From a virus: a stretch of DNA of 11,770 nucleotides. The DNA lies in the UHGV virus genome UHGV-0394577, one strand, 5' to 3'. Within the stretch, counting starts at the first letter, position 1; the number at the start of each line of letters is the position of its first letter. The notes below the pieces were generated by a model. That model was not told the DNA's origin, made no database searches, and was given only the letters and a program-made list of their open reading frames with translations. Shown piece after piece: positions 1-11,477 of this stretch. The position numbers and the translations under genes were made by a program.

Positions 1-73
1 CACTTCAGGAAGATTTAACAAATCACTCAAAAAACGCAAAGACAGAACAGCACCAAGATATAAAGCGCTGGAG

Positions 74-1314: not shown

Positions 1315-1334
1315 GCCAGCACACAGCACACATA

Positions 1335-1356
1335 GCCGGAGCAATCCGGCTTTTTT
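1335..1356 (+). terminator. rho-independent terminator (hairpin GCCGGAGCAATCCGGC + T6)
   Basis: Second copy of the hairpin seen at 972-987 with one loop substitution, followed by a T-run. Confidence 0.55.
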
Positions 1357-1404: not shown

Positions 1405-1482
1405 GCATATGAGGTTTTTTTGGTGCGCTGACACACATGATCGGGATGATAATTTCATAATTTGCAACATAACTCAATATCA

Positions 1483-1510
1483 TTGCACAAAATGCAATCC
1501 TGATTATAAT
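1483..1510 (+). promoter_or_regulatory. candidate sigma70 promoter for the head-gene operon, overlapped by a palindromic operator
   Basis: TTGCAC (1483-1488), 16-bp spacer, TATAAT (1505-1510). Perfect inverted repeat ATTGCA-n5-TGCAAT (1482-1498) overlaps the -35/spacer. About 55 bp upstream of the ORF at 1567. Confidence 0.3.
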
Positions 1511-1566
1511 CATAACTGGATGAACATACAGTTATGATTTTTTAAGTCGAAGAGGAATTTCTTACT

Positions 1567-2839: not shown

Positions 2840-3175
2840 ATGAACACTCCATACATTGAGTTATTTGCAGGCAGTCAGCAGGTATCAACGACGCTGGTAC
2901 ATTTTGCCGCTGATGCTGGCGTTATTCAGGAATTTACCCCGCTGATGCTGGTGGACAATGGCGAGTTTAAGCCGTGGGATGGTCAGGAATCTGGCAAGGC
3001 TGTTTATCTGACCTCGTACCCCGTGGACACGTCGACGCAGAAATCAGCACAGTGCTACAAGACGGGGATATTCAATATTGCCGCCGTTAACTGGCCTGAG
3101 AGCGTCGACACCGATGCGAAAAAATGCGCCGCCTTTGCGGGTTCTGGCGTATCCGTTCAGCCGCTGGCCCGATAA
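2840..3175 (+). CDS. head decoration protein, phage lambda gpD-like
   Basis: 111 aa (lambda D is about 110 aa); shared motifs TPLML, WDG, YKTGIF, WPE, AFAGSG; SD GGGGGAT. Gene order here is E then D, the reverse of lambda. Confidence 0.8.
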   Translation: MNTPYIELFAGSQQVSTTLVHFAADAGVIQEFTPLMLVDNGEFKPWDGQESGKAVYLTSYPVDTSTQKSAQCYKTGIFNIAAVNWPESVDTDAKKCAAFAGSGVSVQPLAR

Positions 3176-3187
3176 GCAGGGGGAACG

Positions 3188-3601
3188 ATGGCAACGAATG
3201 AAAGCATCATGACGCTACCGCTGGCGAGTAAATTTAAAGCCGAAGCGCGTGCAATGGCTGACAGAGGTTTATCAACCTATGAGGCCGTATATCAACTAAA
3301 CAAACTGGAAGAGCAGGACAAGCCGCGCGCTGATGCGATTATGGCGCTTCATGAGCATAAAGACTATCAGCCGCTGTTGCGTGCAATGGCAAACGTGCCA
3401 TGTATTAGCGTCGATAATGCTCGTGAAATCCTGAACATGACCATAGACCAGGAGCGCCCAAAGGTTGCGCCGGAGCTTACCGCAGCCTTTGAAAACTTTA
3501 TGGACATGCACAGCCCGCAAGCCGTATCAGCAGGCATGGCATACGATGGAAGAAACCCTGGCGATGACGGCGACATCGATCGCATACTGAAAACCATCTG
3601 A
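3188..3601 (+). CDS. hypothetical protein (137 aa), in the position occupied by FI in lambda
   Basis: Good SD (AGGGGGAA); acidic C-terminus; followed directly by a terminator. No recognisable sequence similarity, positional inference only. Confidence 0.5.
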   Translation: MATNESIMTLPLASKFKAEARAMADRGLSTYEAVYQLNKLEEQDKPRADAIMALHEHKDYQPLLRAMANVPCISVDNAREILNMTIDQERPKVAPELTAAFENFMDMHSPQAVSAGMAYDGRNPGDDGDIDRILKTI

Positions 3602-3606
3602 GACAG

Positions 3607-3631
3607 GCCGGAGAAATCCGGCTTTTTTTTT
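3607..3631 (+). terminator. rho-independent terminator (hairpin GCCGGAGAAATCCGGC + T9)
   Basis: Third copy of the same hairpin, identical to the copy at 972-987; the T-run runs into the cosQ-like sequence. Confidence 0.6.
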
Positions 3632-3698
3632 ACGGGTCCTTTCCGGCATATGGACCCGTTACGGGGCGGCGACCTCGCGCGTTTTCGCTATTTATGAG
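3631..3698 (+). other. lambda-type cos site (cos1): cosQ-like TACGGGTCCTTTCCGG, cosN GGGCGGCGACCT at 3664-3675, start of cosB
   Basis: TTTACGGGTCCTTTCCGG...GTTACGGGGCGGCGACCTCGCG.GTTTTCGCTATTTATGA matches the joined right and left ends of phage lambda DNA as recalled from memory; lies upstream of the Nu1-like gene as in lambda. Confidence 0.75.
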
Positions 3699-3808
3699 CC
3701 TTTTCGGGTTGGTGGTGGTGGTTTTGTTGTTCGCTCTATCTCCATGAATAAAAAGGGAAAGATAACACCAACACACCAACCTGAAGCATTAATTAAGTGG
3801 GGGTATTG

Positions 3809-4351
3809 ATGAAATCGCACCTGATGAACAAAAAAACTATGGCGCAAAGCTGCCGCGTAAGCGCCACTGCGTTCGATAAGTGGGGAGTAACTCCCGTTGA
3901 GCGTAAAGGCCGTGAGGCGTTTTATGATGTTGCTAGCGTGATAGACAATAGGGTTAACAATGCAATTAACCAGCTTACAAACGACAAAGGCGAGATTGAT
4001 GATGATGAACTTTTACGCGTAAGAATCAGATTAATGACGGCCCAGGCGGAAGCGCAGGAACTTAAAAACGAGCGCGAACGCGGCGAGGTGATTGATACAG
4101 AGTTTTGCATGTACGCGCTTTCAAAACTGGCAAGTCAGATTTCTTCAATCATGGACAGCCTCCCGCTTACTATGCAAAGGAACTTCCCACAGATGCCCCC
4201 CGCTATGCTGCATGGGCTTAAGAGGGAAGTAGTTAAAGCCTGTAATGCCAGTGCCAGAGTTGCCGACAACCTCCCACAGATACTGGCTGATTACTTGAAA
4301 GAAACAACCGGAAACGTACCGGAAAAGTTGCTACAGAAGAAAGGCGAGTAA
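3809..4351 (+). CDS. terminase small subunit, lambda Nu1-like
   Basis: Track ORF 3797..4351 begins at GTG; ATG 3809 follows a GGGGG SD. The middle and C-terminal regions resemble lambda Nu1 (RLMTAQAEAQELKNERERGEVIDTEFCMYALSKLASQISSIMDSLPLTMQRNFPQ; LKREVVKACNASA), while the N-terminal putative DNA-binding region is divergent. Confidence 0.85.
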   Translation: MKSHLMNKKTMAQSCRVSATAFDKWGVTPVERKGREAFYDVASVIDNRVNNAINQLTNDKGEIDDDELLRVRIRLMTAQAEAQELKNERERGEVIDTEFCMYALSKLASQISSIMDSLPLTMQRNFPQMPPAMLHGLKREVVKACNASARVADNLPQILADYLKETTGNVPEKLLQKKGE

Positions 4352-4472: not shown

Positions 4473-4571
4473 AGAAGAAGAACGGATCTGACTTTTGCCG
4501 GAAAATTTTCATAAACAGATAAAATCCGCGAGGTCGCCGCCCCGTAACGGGCCATAATTCCAGGAAGGACC
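4473..4571 (-). other. second lambda-type cos site in inverted orientation (cos2): cosQ-like, cosN (4531-4542, minus strand), R3-like CCGTTCTTCTTC
   Basis: Reverse complement reads CGGGTCCTTCC...CCGTTACGGGGCGGCGACCTCGCGGATTTT...TTTATGAAAATTTTCCGG...CCGTTCTTCTTC, matching lambda cos further into cosB than cos1 does. Confidence 0.7.
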
Positions 4572-4606
4572 CGACGACACCAGACTATCAGAACGATGGG
4601 GGCACA

Positions 4607-5644: not shown

Positions 5645-5679
5645 TAAAACCCTGTTTTTTCGTGTGGAATCATAGACAT

Positions 5680-6921
5680 ATGGCGAGAAAAACAACCCAA
5701 TTAACCACAGTGCAGATCAAAGCAGCCAGGCCAGCGGAAAAGGAGTACACCCTACAGGACGGCGGGGGGCTTTTTCTCCTGGTCAAACCGTCCGGATCAA
5801 AACTCTGGAGATTTTCCTACTACCGACCATCGGACAAAAAAAGAATATTGCTGAGTTTTGGATCGCTTGAAGATGTTTCCCTGGCTGATGCCAGAAAACG
5901 CCGTAGCGAGTACAGGACGTTAATCAGTGCCGGAACTGACCCGCAGGACCACGAGAGGCAAAAAAGAGAGACAGAGGCCCGAAGACAAGGGAACACGTTC
6001 GAAAATGTGGCGGCGGCATGGTACCAGGTGAAAATCAGCCAGAATCTGGCCCCCAACACGATTAAAGACATCTGGAGATCGCTGGAAAAATATGTATTCC
6101 CGTTCATCGGTAACACGCCAATAGACACCCTGACCGCTCGCAGGTTTGTTGAGGTGCTTACCCCCATCAAGGAACGTGGCAACCTGGAAACACTCAAACG
6201 GGTTTTACAGCGAGTCAATGAAGTAATGGATTACGCCGCCAACAGTGGGCTGATCGATACCAATCCGGCTATGAATGTGCGTAAGGCGTTCCCCTCCCCT
6301 GTAAAAAAACATATGCCAACAATCCGCCCCGAGCAGTTGCCGGAGCTTATGCAGGCTTTATCAGTATCGGCAACAGAACGGCAGACCAGATTACTGATCG
6401 AATGGCAGTTACTGACCGTAACCCGTCCCGCCGAAGCGTCATCAACTCGGTGGGATGAAATCGACATGGACGCGAAGCGATGGACGATACCCGCCGGACG
6501 CATGAAGATGAGGCGTGATCACGTTATCCCGCTTTGTAGTCAGGCTATGGCGGTACTGGAGGCTATGAAACCAATCAGCCATCACCGCGATTACGTTTTC
6601 CCGAGCCTGAAAGACCCACGGCAGCCTATGAACAGCCAGACCGCAAACGCAGCATTGCGGCGGATGGGGTTTGGCGGGGTTCTGGTTTCTCACGGTATGC
6701 GCGCCATATTCAGCACCGCAGCGAACGAAGAAGGATTTGAGCCGGACGTAATAGAGGCCGCACTAGCCCACGTGGACACCAACGAAGTGAGACGGGCATA
6801 CAACCGGAGCAACTACATAGAAAAACGCATCGTGCTTATGCGCTGGTGGGGCGAATTTGTCGAGGCGGCGGCAACGGGCGTGACCCTTGCCAGTGGTAAA
6901 AGGGGTATTCGGGCCGTGTAG
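5680..6921 (+). CDS. int: tyrosine recombinase / integrase, P4-family
   Basis: Track ORF 5662..6921 begins at GTG; ATG at 5680 gives the N-terminus MARKTTQLTTVQIKAARPAEKEYTLQDGGGLFLLVKPSGSKLWRFSYY typical of P4-like integrases; C-terminal catalytic region with R...HVIPL...HGMR..F...A and a Y in RRAYNRSNY. Confidence 0.92.
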   Translation: MARKTTQLTTVQIKAARPAEKEYTLQDGGGLFLLVKPSGSKLWRFSYYRPSDKKRILLSFGSLEDVSLADARKRRSEYRTLISAGTDPQDHERQKRETEARRQGNTFENVAAAWYQVKISQNLAPNTIKDIWRSLEKYVFPFIGNTPIDTLTARRFVEVLTPIKERGNLETLKRVLQRVNEVMDYAANSGLIDTNPAMNVRKAFPSPVKKHMPTIRPEQLPELMQALSVSATERQTRLLIEWQLLTVTRPAEASSTRWDEIDMDAKRWTIPAGRMKMRRDHVIPLCSQAMAVLEAMKPISHHRDYVFPSLKDPRQPMNSQTANAALRRMGFGGVLVSHGMRAIFSTAANEEGFEPDVIEAALAHVDTNEVRRAYNRSNYIEKRIVLMRWWGEFVEAAATGVTLASGKRGIRAV

Positions 6922-7019
6922 CTGTACAGAAAACCAGTAAAAACTACGAAAACCATGTAAAACCGTCGTATAATTGCGGTTCTTGTTACGCCAGGGGATG
7001 CCTTCATGAGTCGGATAAT

Positions 7020-7285: not shown

Positions 7286-7314
7286 TAATTCCCTTTCAAA
7301 TCATCAACATAAAA

Positions 7315-7328
7315 AACGGTTATAACCG
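7315..7328. promoter_or_regulatory. perfect 14-bp palindrome ACGGTTATAACCGT upstream of alpA
   Basis: Related to the GTTATACG motif family found upstream of int; about 90 bp upstream of the alpA ATG. Confidence 0.35.
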
Positions 7329-7382
7329 TTTAAAAACGGTGGGAACTGTTTTTACCCATATTCGATGATTTACCGTATTTGT

Positions 7383-7417: not shown

Positions 7418-7624
7418 ATGGAAGCAATCAAAAAAGTCATCTTTCGCCAGGAAGTAAAAAAACTTATCCACATCAAGGCAGACAGCACGCTGCAAAGCAT
7501 GATCAACGCCGGAGAATTCCCGCAGGGTTTTCGCGTTGGTTTACGCCGTCGAGGATGGTATGAGGATGACGTAATCGCCTGGATGAAAGAACGCGAACAG
7601 GAAGCACGCGGAACGGCTGCTTAA
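7418..7624 (+). CDS. alpA: AlpA/Vis-family phage regulatory protein (excisionase-like HTH)
   Basis: 68 aa; STLQSMINAGEFPQGFRVGLRRRGWYEDDVIAWMKER fits the AlpA-family pattern (FP, G.R..GW.E.EV..W); sits downstream of int as in P4-like and PICI elements. Confidence 0.75.
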   Translation: MEAIKKVIFRQEVKKLIHIKADSTLQSMINAGEFPQGFRVGLRRRGWYEDDVIAWMKEREQEARGTAA

Positions 7625-8000: not shown

Positions 8001-8192
8001 TTATCCTTTGGGTTCTATGCCGCGCCGCTTTAGTTCAGTGCGCCCCAACTCTTTAAGCCAGTTGGCTAGGCTTATGCCGTCGCTCTGTGCTTCTTTGTCG
8101 AATTGCTCTTTTAGCTCTGGAGAAATTCGCATTCTGAATTGTGGGGATTGCCCGTCCCCTTTAGGGCTTTTATCGCGTTTGATTGTTGACAA
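8001..8192 (-). CDS. ribbon-helix-helix (RHH) DNA-binding protein, putative regulator
   Basis: C-terminal FRMRISPELKEQFDKEAQSDGISLANWLKELGR fits the RHH pattern (beta strand then two helices, as in MobC/CopG-type proteins). Proposed start is TTG 8192 with AGGTGA SD; alternatives are ATG 8132 or the track's TTG 8273. Confidence 0.4.
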   Translation of the reverse strand: MSTIKRDKSPKGDGQSPQFRMRISPELKEQFDKEAQSDGISLANWLKELGRTELKRRGIEPKG

Positions 8193-8235
8193 GTGGTCAC
8201 CTATTGAATTAGCCTTTCTATTGTTAGGTGACCAC
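8193..8235. promoter_or_regulatory. operator-like inverted repeat GTGGTCACCT-n23-AGGTGACCAC
   Basis: Perfect 10-bp inverted repeat; each half contains the palindromic GGTCACC/GGTGACC core; located at the 5' end of the RHH gene and upstream of the Ash/Icd operon. Confidence 0.4.
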
Positions 8236-8326
8236 CTTAACACAAGAGCACTTAAAAAAGCAAAGCCCCGCAAGTGTCATTACCACTCGCAGGGCTTCTA
8301 ACCAACAACGTAAACTAGGAGCCGTT

Positions 8327-8524: not shown

Positions 8525-8984
8525 AAACCGCTTGCAAAAAATTATAACGGGGCTGTATGCTTCCCCCGTCGCCCACATGGCGACCGGGTTTGACAGCCTG
8601 AATACTGTAGCGGACAGCCGCTTACATTCCGATATGCGGTTTTTTTGTGTCCGTAAACCTACCCATACCCGCATTATGGCGGGGCGTAACGGGGGAGCCT
8701 TTGCGCTCGCTGGTTCCTACAGTACCAGTCTGTCAACCCTGTTACGTCTCGCCACCATGTTTGACAGCGTAGTAGCGAGACTCCTTAAAATTACTGTAGG
8801 AGCCTTTCACATGGCTGTATCCGCACGCCCTTACTTTGTCTGGCGCTTTATGCAGTGCCACCACAGCAGCATTGATGTATTCACCGTTACCGCAGCCACT
8901 GAACGCGAAGCACGCGCCCAGCTGCCGCACGCACATCTGATTTTTGTCGCCCGTATTCGTCAGGGGAAAACCTATGCACAATAA
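8517..8984 (+). CDS. Ash-family-like protein, long paralog
   Basis: 155 aa from ATG 8517 (SD AGGGGT); start overlaps the previous stop (ATGCGTAA); C-terminus YFVWRFMQC...VTAATEREARAQLP...IFVARIRQG is homologous to the upstream ORF. Confidence 0.5.
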   Translation: MRKNRLQKIITGLYASPVAHMATGFDSLNTVADSRLHSDMRFFCVRKPTHTRIMAGRNGGAFALAGSYSTSLSTLLRLATMFDSVVARLLKITVGAFHMAVSARPYFVWRFMQCHHSSIDVFTVTAATEREARAQLPHAHLIFVARIRQGKTYAQ

Positions 8985-9426: not shown

Positions 9427-9726
9427 ATGAAACTTAAATATCCTGGCTTAACTGCCAGCGGCAAAACTCGCACTAAATTCATGTGCGGGGATATTTACCG
9501 CGATAAGTACGGCGGCACGGTAATGATTAAGAGCGTGGAGGAACGGCGCGTAACTTACCGTCGTGAAGGCTACCAATATGATTGCGTGATGCCTGTTTAT
9601 CAGTTCGAACGTGATTTTTCTCTTGTGCAGGCCGTACCGCGTAACGTGCCCACCAGCAGGGAGAAAGCACGCGCCAATATTCAGGAAATAAGAAAGATGT
9701 TGAACGTATTCAGGGGTAAAAAATGA
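9427..9726 (+). CDS. hypothetical protein (99 aa)
   Basis: ATG 9427 with GGAG 10 nt upstream; stop overlaps the primase start (ATGA). Confidence 0.5.
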   Translation: MKLKYPGLTASGKTRTKFMCGDIYRDKYGGTVMIKSVEERRVTYRREGYQYDCVMPVYQFERDFSLVQAVPRNVPTSREKARANIQEIRKMLNVFRGKK

Positions 9727-11477
9727 AACTTGCACCGAACGTAAAACAGCAGTCACGCGGCATAAAACACAAAGGAACAGAAGTCATTATTTTTGCGGGT
9801 AGTGATGCCTGGTCACACGCTAAACAATGGCAGGAACATGACGCGCGTATGGCCGGAGATAATGAGCCTCCTGTGTGGCTTGGGGATCAGCAGTTATCCG
9901 AACTGGATAAGCTGCAAATTGTGCCGGAAGGCCGAAAATCAGTACGCATATTCAGGGCCGGACATCTTGAACCTGTAATGATAAAGGCGATTGGTCAGAA
10001 GCTGGCGGCGGCAGGTGTACAGGATGCAAATTTTTACCCTGAGGGAATGCACGTTCAGGAGGTGGAGAACTGGCGCGAATATCTGGCCCGTGAGCGCCAG
10101 AATCTTTCTGAAGGTCTGTTCGTTGAGCTTCCGGTAAAGCAAAAGGCGCAACTTTCGCAGATGGCGGACAGTGAACGCGCTCAGCTGCTTTCCGATCGCT
10201 TTGATGGCGTTTGCGTACATCCTGAAAGTGAAATCGTTCACGTATGGCGCGGCGGGGTATGGTGTCCGGTCAGCACAATGGAACTTAGCCGCGAAATGGT
10301 GGCGATCTATTCAGAGCACAGGGCCACTTTCAGCAAGCGCGTAATCAATAACGCCGTTGAAGCGTTAAAAGTTATTGCCGAACCAATGGGCGAGCCGTCC
10401 GGCGATTTGTTGCCGTTCGCCAATGGTGCGCTTGACCTGAAAACGGGGGAATTTTCCCCGCACACGCCGGAGAACTGGATCACCACGCACAACGGTATTG
10501 AGTACACGCCACCAGCACCAGGGGAGAACATCCGCGATAACGCGCCAAATTTTCATAAATGGCTTGAGCACGCAGCCGGAAAAGACCCGCGCAAGATGAT
10601 GCGTATATGTGCCGCGCTGTACATGATTATGGCGAACCGGTACGACTGGCAGATGTTTATTGAGGCCACCGGAGACGGCGGAAGCGGTAAAAGTACATTC
10701 ACGCATATAGCCAGCCTTCTGGCAGGGAAACAGAACACGGTAAGCGCTGAAATGACCTCACTTGATGATGCTGGTGGACGTGCGCAGGTTGTCGGGAGTC
10801 GTCTTATCGTCCTGGCTGACCAGCCGAAATATACAGGCGAAGGAACGGGCATCAAGAAAATCACGGGCGGCGACCCCGTGGAAATTAACCCGAAATATGA
10901 AAAGCGTTTCACGGCGGTAATCAGGGCGGTGGTGCTGACGACCAACAACAACCCGATGATATTCACCGAACGGGCCGGAGGCGTGGCACGTCGTCGGGTT
11001 ATTTTTCGCTTTGACAATATCGTTAGCGAGGCAGAAAAGGACAAGGATTTGCCGGAGAAGGTCGCGGCTGAAATCCCTGTGATTATCCGCCGATTACTGG
11101 CGAACTTTGCCGACCCTGAAAAGGCCCGGGCTTTACTCCTGGAACAGCGCGACGGTGATGAAGCACTGGCAATAAAGCAACAGACGGATCCGGTTATTGA
11201 GTTTTGCCAGTTCCTGAATTTTCTGGAGGAAGCGCGCGGCCTGATGATGGGTGGCGGTGGCGATTCAGTGAAGTACACGACCAGGAACAGCCTTTACCGC
11301 GTCTATCTGGCGTTTATGGCGTACGCAGGCAGGAGCAAACCGCTAAACGTAAATGACTTTGGCAAGGCTATGAAGCCCGCTGCAAAAGTTTACGGACATG
11401 AATATATTACGCGGAAAGTTAAGGGAGTAACGCAGACTAACGCAATAACAACAGACGATTGTGACGCGTTTTTATAA
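9723..11477 (+). CDS. P4-alpha-like primase/helicase replication protein (SF3 helicase domain)
   Basis: 584 aa; Walker A GDGGSGKST, Walker B-like LIVLAD, later VVLTTNN motif; architecture typical of P4-family/PICI primase-helicase; iteron origin immediately downstream. Confidence 0.88.
   Translation: MKLAPNVKQQSRGIKHKGTEVIIFAGSDAWSHAKQWQEHDARMAGDNEPPVWLGDQQLSELDKLQIVPEGRKSVRIFRAGHLEPVMIKAIGQKLAAAGVQDANFYPEGMHVQEVENWREYLARERQNLSEGLFVELPVKQKAQLSQMADSERAQLLSDRFDGVCVHPESEIVHVWRGGVWCPVSTMELSREMVAIYSEHRATFSKRVINNAVEALKVIAEPMGEPSGDLLPFANGALDLKTGEFSPHTPENWITTHNGIEYTPPAPGENIRDNAPNFHKWLEHAAGKDPRKMMRICAALYMIMANRYDWQMFIEATGDGGSGKSTFTHIASLLAGKQNTVSAEMTSLDDAGGRAQVVGSRLIVLADQPKYTGEGTGIKKITGGDPVEINPKYEKRFTAVIRAVVLTTNNNPMIFTERAGGVARRRVIFRFDNIVSEAEKDKDLPEKVAAEIPVIIRRLLANFADPEKARALLLEQRDGDEALAIKQQTDPVIEFCQFLNFLEEARGLMMGGGGDSVKYTTRNSLYRVYLAFMAYAGRSKPLNVNDFGKAMKPAAKVYGHEYITRKVKGVTQTNAITTDDCDAFL

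Follow-up and report, generated by a model that had tools for sequence, protein, structure and literature searches.

A predicted LexA operator and two conserved dyads at the putative capsid-operon promoter of an Escherichia coli phage satellite

Results

The sequence examined here, UHGV virus genome UHGV-0394577, is a viral DNA of 11,770 nucleotides (this whole stretch is called the window below), and our subject is the regulatory DNA upstream of its capsid genes. Because the gene order in the window matches that of the annotated islands of E. coli Nissle and CFT073, where the CFT073 genes are c1498-c1505, the 11.77-kb sequence is, as judged from its gene content, a circularly permuted E. coli phage satellite of the EcCICFT073 family, whose namesake is the prototype Gram-negative phage-inducible chromosomal island (PICI; PMC6092414). 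A gap of 250 bp precedes an open reading frame (ORF) at 1567-1773 on the forward strand, which encodes a 68-amino-acid (68-aa) protein, a homologue of c1498 (phrog_3255) and possibly a small DNA-binding protein. It is followed on the same strand by genes for a lambda-E-type major capsid protein (1773-2828; Pfam Phage_cap_E, 2.8e-48) and a lambda-D-type decoration protein (2840-3175; Pfam HDPD, 3.8e-18), both also assigned through PHROGs, and by a 137-aa ORF (3188-3601) whose protein family is restricted to E. coli.

This group of genes lies between terminators. Upstream, the intrinsic terminator t1 (1334-1356, forward strand), in which a T run comes after the stem AGCCGGAGCAATCCGGCT (folding energy of the RNA -13.8 kcal/mol, z -4.5), closes a gene at 1012-1314, and the stronger t2 (1363-1404; -24.2 kcal/mol, z -4.75) has an A run before it and a T run after it. 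Downstream, the intrinsic terminator t3 (3605-3633, forward strand; -14 kcal/mol) precedes cos-like DNA and a gene for a Nu1-like small terminase (TerS-like). The operon consists of the 68-aa ORF, E, D and the 137-aa ORF, ends at t3 before the TerS-like gene, and is insulated from the upstream replication genes by t1 and t2. The initial annotation spoke of E, D and the flanking genes as switched on from this region; the operon covers these four genes and goes no further than the terminator. E. coli relatives with different genes upstream become homologous at ~1350, near t1 and t2, and the segment 1300-1800, which spans the intergenic region and the 5' end of the operon, is matched in 577 of 5,426 complete E. 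coli genomes.

Published RNA sequencing of CFT073 shifted from 23 to 37 degrees C agrees with these limits. The log2 fold changes of c1498 (+2.24), c1499 (+2.05), c1500 (+1.45) and c1501 (+1.17) are all significant (PMC12890032 supplement), whereas the upstream gene for single-stranded DNA-binding protein (SSB; +0.24) and the downstream c1503 (+0.33) are unchanged. The alpA gene (+2.26) rises alongside c1498-c1501, and the genes between are unchanged (PMC12890032). The unit that changes in CFT073 agrees with the unit bounded by the promoter described next and the terminator at 3605.

The intergenic region contains, on the forward strand and 57 nt 5' of the 68-aa ORF, the hexamers TTGCAC (1483-1488) and TATAAT (1505-1510) separated by a 16-bp spacer. 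The motifs that the initial annotation had reported between 1461 and 1510, namely this promoter-like pair (1483-1510), the palindrome ATTGCA-N5-TGCAAT (1482-1498) and a further TTGCAA (1462-1467), are all present. Taken alone, the statistics of the promoter and palindrome motifs are not significant: TTGnnn-16..18-TATAAT occurs once in the window against 0.37 expected and at least once in 29% of shuffles, and perfect 6-N5-6 inverted repeats number five against 2.75 expected. It is context that supports them. The promoter sits in a trough of 27% GC with flanks of ~45-55% GC, and a sigma-70 log-odds scan places TTGCAC-16-TATAAT first in the intergenic region and sixth among 23,448 positions in the window. 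To follow conservation we used 46 distinct upstream sequences drawn from 80 IMG/VR relatives, together with a Salmonella comparison that comprises two nearly identical loci, L082 and L083, whose capsid genes share ~55-80% DNA identity with those of the window. TATAAT is intact in 45 of the 46 distinct relatives and the TTGC of the -35 hexamer in all 46, positions 5 and 6 being variable; in the Salmonella relatives TATAAT is identical despite diverged flanking DNA, and the TTGC is likewise retained. The same promoter architecture is found in CFT073. We consider the motif very probably the sigma-70 promoter of the E/D capsid operon, with a transcription start predicted from the hexamer positions at ~1517.

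Other readings of this segment were discarded. The alternative promoter TTCATA-18-TATCAT (1454-1483), which came from a promoter scan, has a -10 hexamer (1478-1483) that reads CATCAT in 13 of the 46 relatives and is missing in Salmonella. When the palindrome and -10 region were inspected for sigma-54, marbox, DnaA-box, Fis and Fur sites, the spacing was wrong or the match fell on non-conserved bases, and a scan for IHF gave no site in the promoter region.

Four nucleotides 3' of the -10 hexamer, at 1514-1533, lies AACTGGATGAACATACAGTT, a sequence with the CTG-N10-CAG core of the E. coli SOS box, for which the consensus is TACTG(TA)5CAGTA (PMC9578287, PMC2994835). A position weight matrix derived from 18 UV-induced boxes (PMC3009722, Table 4) gives it 21.6 bits, which ranks seventh of 18 by leave-one-out scoring, in a published-site range of 6.6 to 27.6; the recA (20.4), sulA (20.0) and lexA (19.1) boxes all score below it with the same matrix, and 2 Mb of random sequence of matching composition contains no position that attains its score. 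An earlier matrix agreed, with 22.8 bits against a best of 16.7 across 300 shuffles of the window. The sequence is identical to the recA and dinD boxes at 16 of 20 positions. In 77 of 78 relatives a LexA box of 16-22 bits stands at a constant distance from the start of the ORF (-53), and the box of the two Salmonella relatives scores 20.1 bits. CTG and CAG are invariant and the flanking bases 1513-1515 vary, which is the pattern expected of LexA. Relative to the predicted start the box covers ~-3 to +17, a classical repressing position. On these grounds we predict, with good confidence, that 1514-1533 is a LexA operator. The initial annotation had described a candidate head-operon promoter overlapped by a perfect palindrome; the promoter and the conserved, operator-like DNA are supported, but the best-supported switch is the host LexA repressor at this box, which the annotation does not mention, and not a helper or satellite activator at the palindrome.

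A second LexA-like box, AGCTGTACAGAAAACCAGTA (6920-6939; 16.9 bits), occurs elsewhere in the window, at the end of the integrase gene, where it overlaps the stop codon. It lies ~30 bp 5' of a TATAAT at 6969, ahead of a 76-aa ORF and alpA, and all 17 relatives that share the integrase type have it. Where the integrase is of another type, the corresponding position is occupied by a different LexA-like box, TACTGGTTTTTTATACACTA being one example.

The LexA box at the capsid promoter is itself contained in a longer symmetry. An 11-bp inverted repeat on the forward strand, AATCATAACTG (1508-1518) and CAGTTATGATT (1529-1539), is followed by a T run, and the RNA of this interval (1508-1543) folds at -12.2 kcal/mol (z -5.3), its 5' arm lying upstream of the predicted start. 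In relatives the pairs formed by 1513-1515 are often broken, that of 1513 with 1534 in 17 of 46. The stem is AU-rich, where an intrinsic terminator has a GC-rich one, the loop is 10 nt long and the terminator scan did not call the hairpin; we treat the repeat as an extended LexA palindrome. In the same part of the window (1499-1539), the -10 hexamer lies within the palindrome TGATTATAATCA (1501-1512), and in most relatives within a perfect palindrome of 14 bp, ATGATTATAATCAT; a further ATGATT stands at 1534-1539, just 3' of the LexA box, and the conserved symmetry exceeds the need of LexA or RNA polymerase.

Upstream of the LexA box are two dyads. The proximal 17-bp dyad (site 2; 1482-1498) is the perfect 6-N5-6 palindrome ATTGCA (1482-1487)-CAAAA-TGCAAT (1493-1498); it is centred at ~-27, spans the -35 hexamer and reaches into the spacer, and it occurs once in the window in this exact form. 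The TTGCAA at 1462-1467 proves to be the right half of a second, imperfect 17-bp dyad, ATTTCATAATTTGCAAC (site 1; 1452-1468), centred at ~-57. The two sites share 12 of 17 positions and are exactly 30 bp apart, site 1 having two mismatches to the palindrome pattern; the half-site consensus is RTTGCA. In the 46 relatives site 1 is nearly invariant, as is the core TTGC...GCAA of site 2, where the inner bases 1487 and 1488 vary. Similarity to the Salmonella loci starts at site 1 (16 of 17 positions), falls to 7 of 13 in the 13-bp spacer and recovers to 13-14 of 17 at site 2, which reads GTTGCGAAAAATGCAAC in L082 (GTTGCG-AAAAA-TGCAAC, 13/17) and ATTGCGAAAAATGCAAC in L083 (ATTGCG-AAAAA-TGCAAC, 14/17). 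The L082 site differs symmetrically at its outer ends, with G for A on the left and C for T on the right. Across TGATTATAATCA the E. coli and Salmonella sequences agree at every position, and the similarity extends through the core of the LexA box. The island contains no additional copy of the dyad, and the 8- and 9-mers that the region has in common with other intergenic regions are at chance level only. We judge it somewhat probable, from this pattern of conservation, that the dyads are true protein sites. A 13-mer that overlaps site 2, CAAAATGCAATCC (1488-1500), also occurs in the 6S-RNA/orf-64 region of lambda, downstream of the late promoter PR' (lambda 44712-44727; L161 413-428); with an expectation of ~0.07 and unrelated flanks, this sharing was judged coincidental.

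The remainder of the window has the organization by which a PICI is recognized, that is, int, alpA and pri-rep in one orientation followed by a packaging/interference module with an Rpp/TerS-like gene and a cos-like segment. On the forward strand are genes for a tyrosine integrase (5662-6921), an AlpA-like helix-turn-helix protein (7418-7624), a D5-type primase (9723-11477), SSB (271-681), a PerC-family (Pch-like) transcriptional activator (within 572-964; PF06069, 1.5e-41), which lies upstream of the capsid promoter and is missing from the Nissle and Salmonella versions of the island, and the TerS-like protein (3797-4351), beside which a 93-aa ORF is listed. These genes all share one strand; the only convincing reverse-strand gene (8001-8273) encodes a 90-aa YlcI/YnfO (HicB-like) ribbon-helix-helix (RHH) protein and is present in some relatives only.

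Non-coding features were also noted. Between the operon terminator and the TerS-like gene, the non-coding stretch 3626-3697 shares 95.8% identity with a non-coding part of Escherichia phage PhiR5_1 and is likely, from this identity, to be the satellite's version of a helper cos site. At 4498-4574 a short segment matches, at 85.7% identity, a region annotated 'hypothetical protein' in five PhiR12-type coliphages. In the interval from alpA to the primase gene, Rfam identifies a C4 antisense RNA (8555-8604; RF01695, 71.7 bits) and its a1/b1 target (8672-8759; RF03163, 46.8 bits), a pair of the P1/P4-type RNA immunity that adjoins an Icd-like ORF. Upstream of alpA (7300-7345) are an 18-bp perfect palindrome, AAACGGTTATAACCGTTT (7314-7331), and the repeated element AAAAACGGT, and an AAAAC-type periodic repeat occupies 6933-6965; such alpA-upstream repeats may be arm sites of AlpA or Int. 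Scans of genome contigs with two queries, the 68-aa protein and the capsid protein, gave no matches, and a loose DNA pattern scan of viral contigs gave mainly matches in unrelated contigs.

Discussion

The reading that we favor, with somewhat better than even confidence, is a composite one in which a sigma-70 promoter of the capsid operon is repressed by LexA and is additionally contacted by a second regulator at the two dyads. RNA polymerase would start at ~1517, inside the LexA operator, so that in undamaged cells LexA bound to the start site would hold the promoter down. DNA damage, the signal that also induces lambdoid helper prophages, would lead to LexA cleavage and promoter release, and satellite capsid proteins would thereby be made when the helper is active. 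The two dyads would bind a second dimeric regulator, the position of which suggests a repressor or a polymerase-loading factor. Since the dyads are constant across islands that are otherwise mosaic, their binder would be encoded either by the host or within the capsid module, and a second regulatory layer of this kind would explain the LexA-independent change in expression that the literature records.

Several observations weigh against this composite reading. The -35 hexamer TTGCAC is weak, matching TTGACA at three of six positions, and the promoter scan did not list the motif. The capsid module of the E. coli islands is 90-100% identical throughout, which leaves conservation within E. coli with little weight, and the sole real phylogenetic footprint is provided by the two nearly identical Salmonella loci. 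The 68-aa protein, a candidate for the second regulator, has no Pfam, NCBIfam, PDB-sequence (even at permissive thresholds) or convincing fold match. The searchable literature contains no report of a mapped start, LexA binding or SOS induction for this operon. Furthermore, sulA, dinB, uvrB, dinI and umuD are unchanged in CFT073 while c1498-c1501 rise (PMC12890032), which excludes SOS induction as the cause of the temperature response and implies that LexA is not the sole control and does not fully silence the promoter. The non-LexA response could come from a factor bound at the dyads, or AT-rich DNA may be silenced in a temperature-sensitive way. The helper prophage genes that appear in the same stretch of that table are also unchanged (PMC12890032). 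An operon that changes without SOS induction or a change in the listed helper genes is not governed by a strictly helper-dependent 'late' promoter, and in that strict sense the suggestion of a late promoter opened by the helper phage is not borne out.

What binds the dyads can be narrowed by comparing the islands. The integrases are 21-97% identical and AlpA 31-98% identical or undetectable, the primase is variable, and the PerC gene and the reverse-strand RHH gene are present or absent; the dyads are constant throughout. This constancy, with the alleles of AlpA, PerC and the RHH protein varying around it, argues against all three as the binder, and PerC and the reverse-strand YlcI/HicB-like RHH protein were rejected since both are missing from many relatives that keep the dyads. 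That leaves a host protein, a conserved factor of the helper or something encoded in the capsid module, and for the last the leading candidate is the 68-aa product of the first gene. A fuller version of the composite reading can then be drawn as a two-key lock, with LexA on the start site, a hitherto unrecognized small DNA-binding protein (the 68-aa c1498-family product, possibly a divergent RHH protein, or a host factor) on the RTTGCA-N5-TGCAAY dyads, and the second conserved LexA-like box next to int and alpA as part of the scheme; we offer it tentatively, for a satellite family that is widespread in E. coli, and give it a rather low probability.

If the dyads are specifically operators of the 68-aa product, that protein would act as an RHH-like autorepressor and the promoter would be double-locked together with LexA. 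Of the small genes, its gene alone is always found with the promoter, and conservation is highest in the N-terminal 25 residues of the protein and in the DNA at 1550-1600. In our own reading GVSVYISPEIVEVLKQ resembles an RHH strand-helix junction, and the AlphaFold2 model shows two helices after an extended N-terminal segment; the 30-bp distance between the dyads would also suit cooperative binding of dimers. The lack of any database match at permissive thresholds, however, the modest confidence of the model (predicted local distance difference test 70, from a shallow alignment), and the fact that the protein could equally be a capsid-assembly factor make this assignment rather unlikely as it stands.

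The initial annotation had pointed instead to a helper or satellite regulator at the palindrome. In such a scheme AlpA or a Q-like protein would activate the promoter or load onto RNA polymerase there, and in an antiterminator version the loaded polymerase would read through the terminator at 3605 into the TerS-like gene. The placement of the dyad between -35 and -10 is that of the Pseudomonas AlpA binding element (ABE) and the lambda Q binding element (QBE; PMC7969949), an AlpA-like gene is present in the window, a terminator follows the operon, and in CFT073 alpA (+2.26) rises with c1498-c1501 when the intervening genes do not. The satellite half of the proposal nevertheless fares poorly: across AlpA alleles that range from 98% to ~31% identity or are undetectable the same dyads persist, so that AlpA is, by this comparison, an unlikely binder of the palindrome. 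The regions upstream of alpA have allele-specific repeats unrelated to RTTGCA (AAAACGG-type in the window, a GCAACAAT-type tandem in L113), there is no further copy of the dyad in the island, the alpA promoter included, and the published ABE motif GGGACG-N5-GGTA does not match the dyad. As for the helper half, the Q proteins of lambdoid helper phages differ, yet the site is invariant. The helpers of this satellite family are the lambdoid phages lambda and phi80 (PMC6092414). We regard activation or polymerase loading by AlpA or a Q-like protein as improbable.

We think it similarly improbable that the dyads are host-factor sites, for instance of CytR, or no protein sites at all, the promoter then being an AT-rich one silenced by H-NS and the palindrome a chance feature of a recently shared cassette. 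Temperature-responsiveness is typical of H-NS targets and is seen in CFT073 for both the operon and alpA; the GC content of the region is 27%, and perfect 6-N5-6 repeats are common by chance. Against a purely compositional origin, both dyads are conserved in Salmonella with the 13 bp between them diverged, and conservation starts exactly at site 1. For CytR, TTTGCAAC-N13-ATTGCACA together with AATGCAAT resembles the octamers GTTGCATT and AATGCAAC and their permitted spacings (PMC3454398). CytR-regulated promoters, however, have at least one CRP site (PMC3454398); by inspection no TGTGA-N6-TCACA-like site is found here, and conservation is lacking in the interval that would hold it.

That the inverted repeat and T run at 1508-1543 are instead a terminator or attenuator for upstream transcripts, with TATAAT incidental, is very improbable: despite the folding energy and U run of the hairpin, outer arms (AATCAT/ATGATT) conserved even in Salmonella and some pairs that change by G-U wobble or compensating substitutions, there is no conserved promoter upstream (TATCAT at 1478-1483 is variable), two strong terminators already block read-through, the AU-rich stem and broken 1513/1534 pair are unfavorable, the invariant bases are exactly the CTG and CAG required by LexA, and the downstream operon is expressed as a unit.

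The composite promoter that we favor can be set beside characterized systems. One is operon I, the packaging and morphogenesis operon of the staphylococcal pathogenicity islands (SaPIs), which is LexA-controlled according to Ubeda et al. 2007 as cited in PMC6092414. In both, a satellite of the PICI class has a late capsid/packaging operon whose own promoter carries a LexA operator (here a predicted one), tying it to the SOS signal that induces the helper. The host here is Gram-negative, however, with a CTG-N10-CAG box in place of CGAAC-N4-GTTCG; the genes are lambda-type E/D homologues in place of terS, cpm and pti; and the TerS-like gene lies beyond a terminator and two extra dyads are present. 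Among E. coli SOS promoters, including those of lexA, the colicin genes and the 'double-locked' colicins, the window shares a CTG-N10-CAG box in the proven score range directly 3' of a consensus -10 and, with the double-locked colicin promoters, a possible second repressor site in one promoter, but it has a single box where the lexA and colicin promoters have tandem or overlapping ones. With the AlpA and lambda-Q loading sites (ABE, QBE; PMC7969949, PMC9371919) it has in common a dyad in the -35 to -10 interval, an AlpA-family gene and terminators that punctuate the island; the dyad is unrelated in sequence to the ABE and does not co-vary with the AlpA allele, and the next terminator is ~2 kb away, there being none immediately 3' of the start. 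Operators of CytR (TGCAA/TTGCA octamer pairs) resemble the dyads in half-sites and permitted spacings and differ in having flanking CRP sites, which are missing here.

In the published view of Gram-negative PICIs, AlpA activates the island genes and the helper phage switches alpA on; deletion of c1499 or c1500 gave no phenotype, and no function or regulation was assigned to the capsid E/D homologues (PMC6092414). The searchable literature holds no statement of LexA control for Gram-negative islands. A LexA-wired late operon in a phage satellite is known for SaPIs and is here predicted for an E. coli PICI family. If the prediction is right, SOS boxes at the capsid promoter and beside int would give these satellites a direct means of sensing DNA damage, comparable to that of SaPIs through operon I, so that the Gram-negative PICI cycle would be wired directly to the SOS response and not only through a helper-encoded inducer of alpA, and unrelated satellite lineages would have arrived at this wiring convergently. 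The CTG and CAG bases and the two dyads present a precise and easily mutated target for asking when and why a satellite makes its own capsid proteins, and the arrangement may help to explain why transcriptomes of uropathogenic E. coli responding to host cues show c1498-c1501 regulated as a separate unit.

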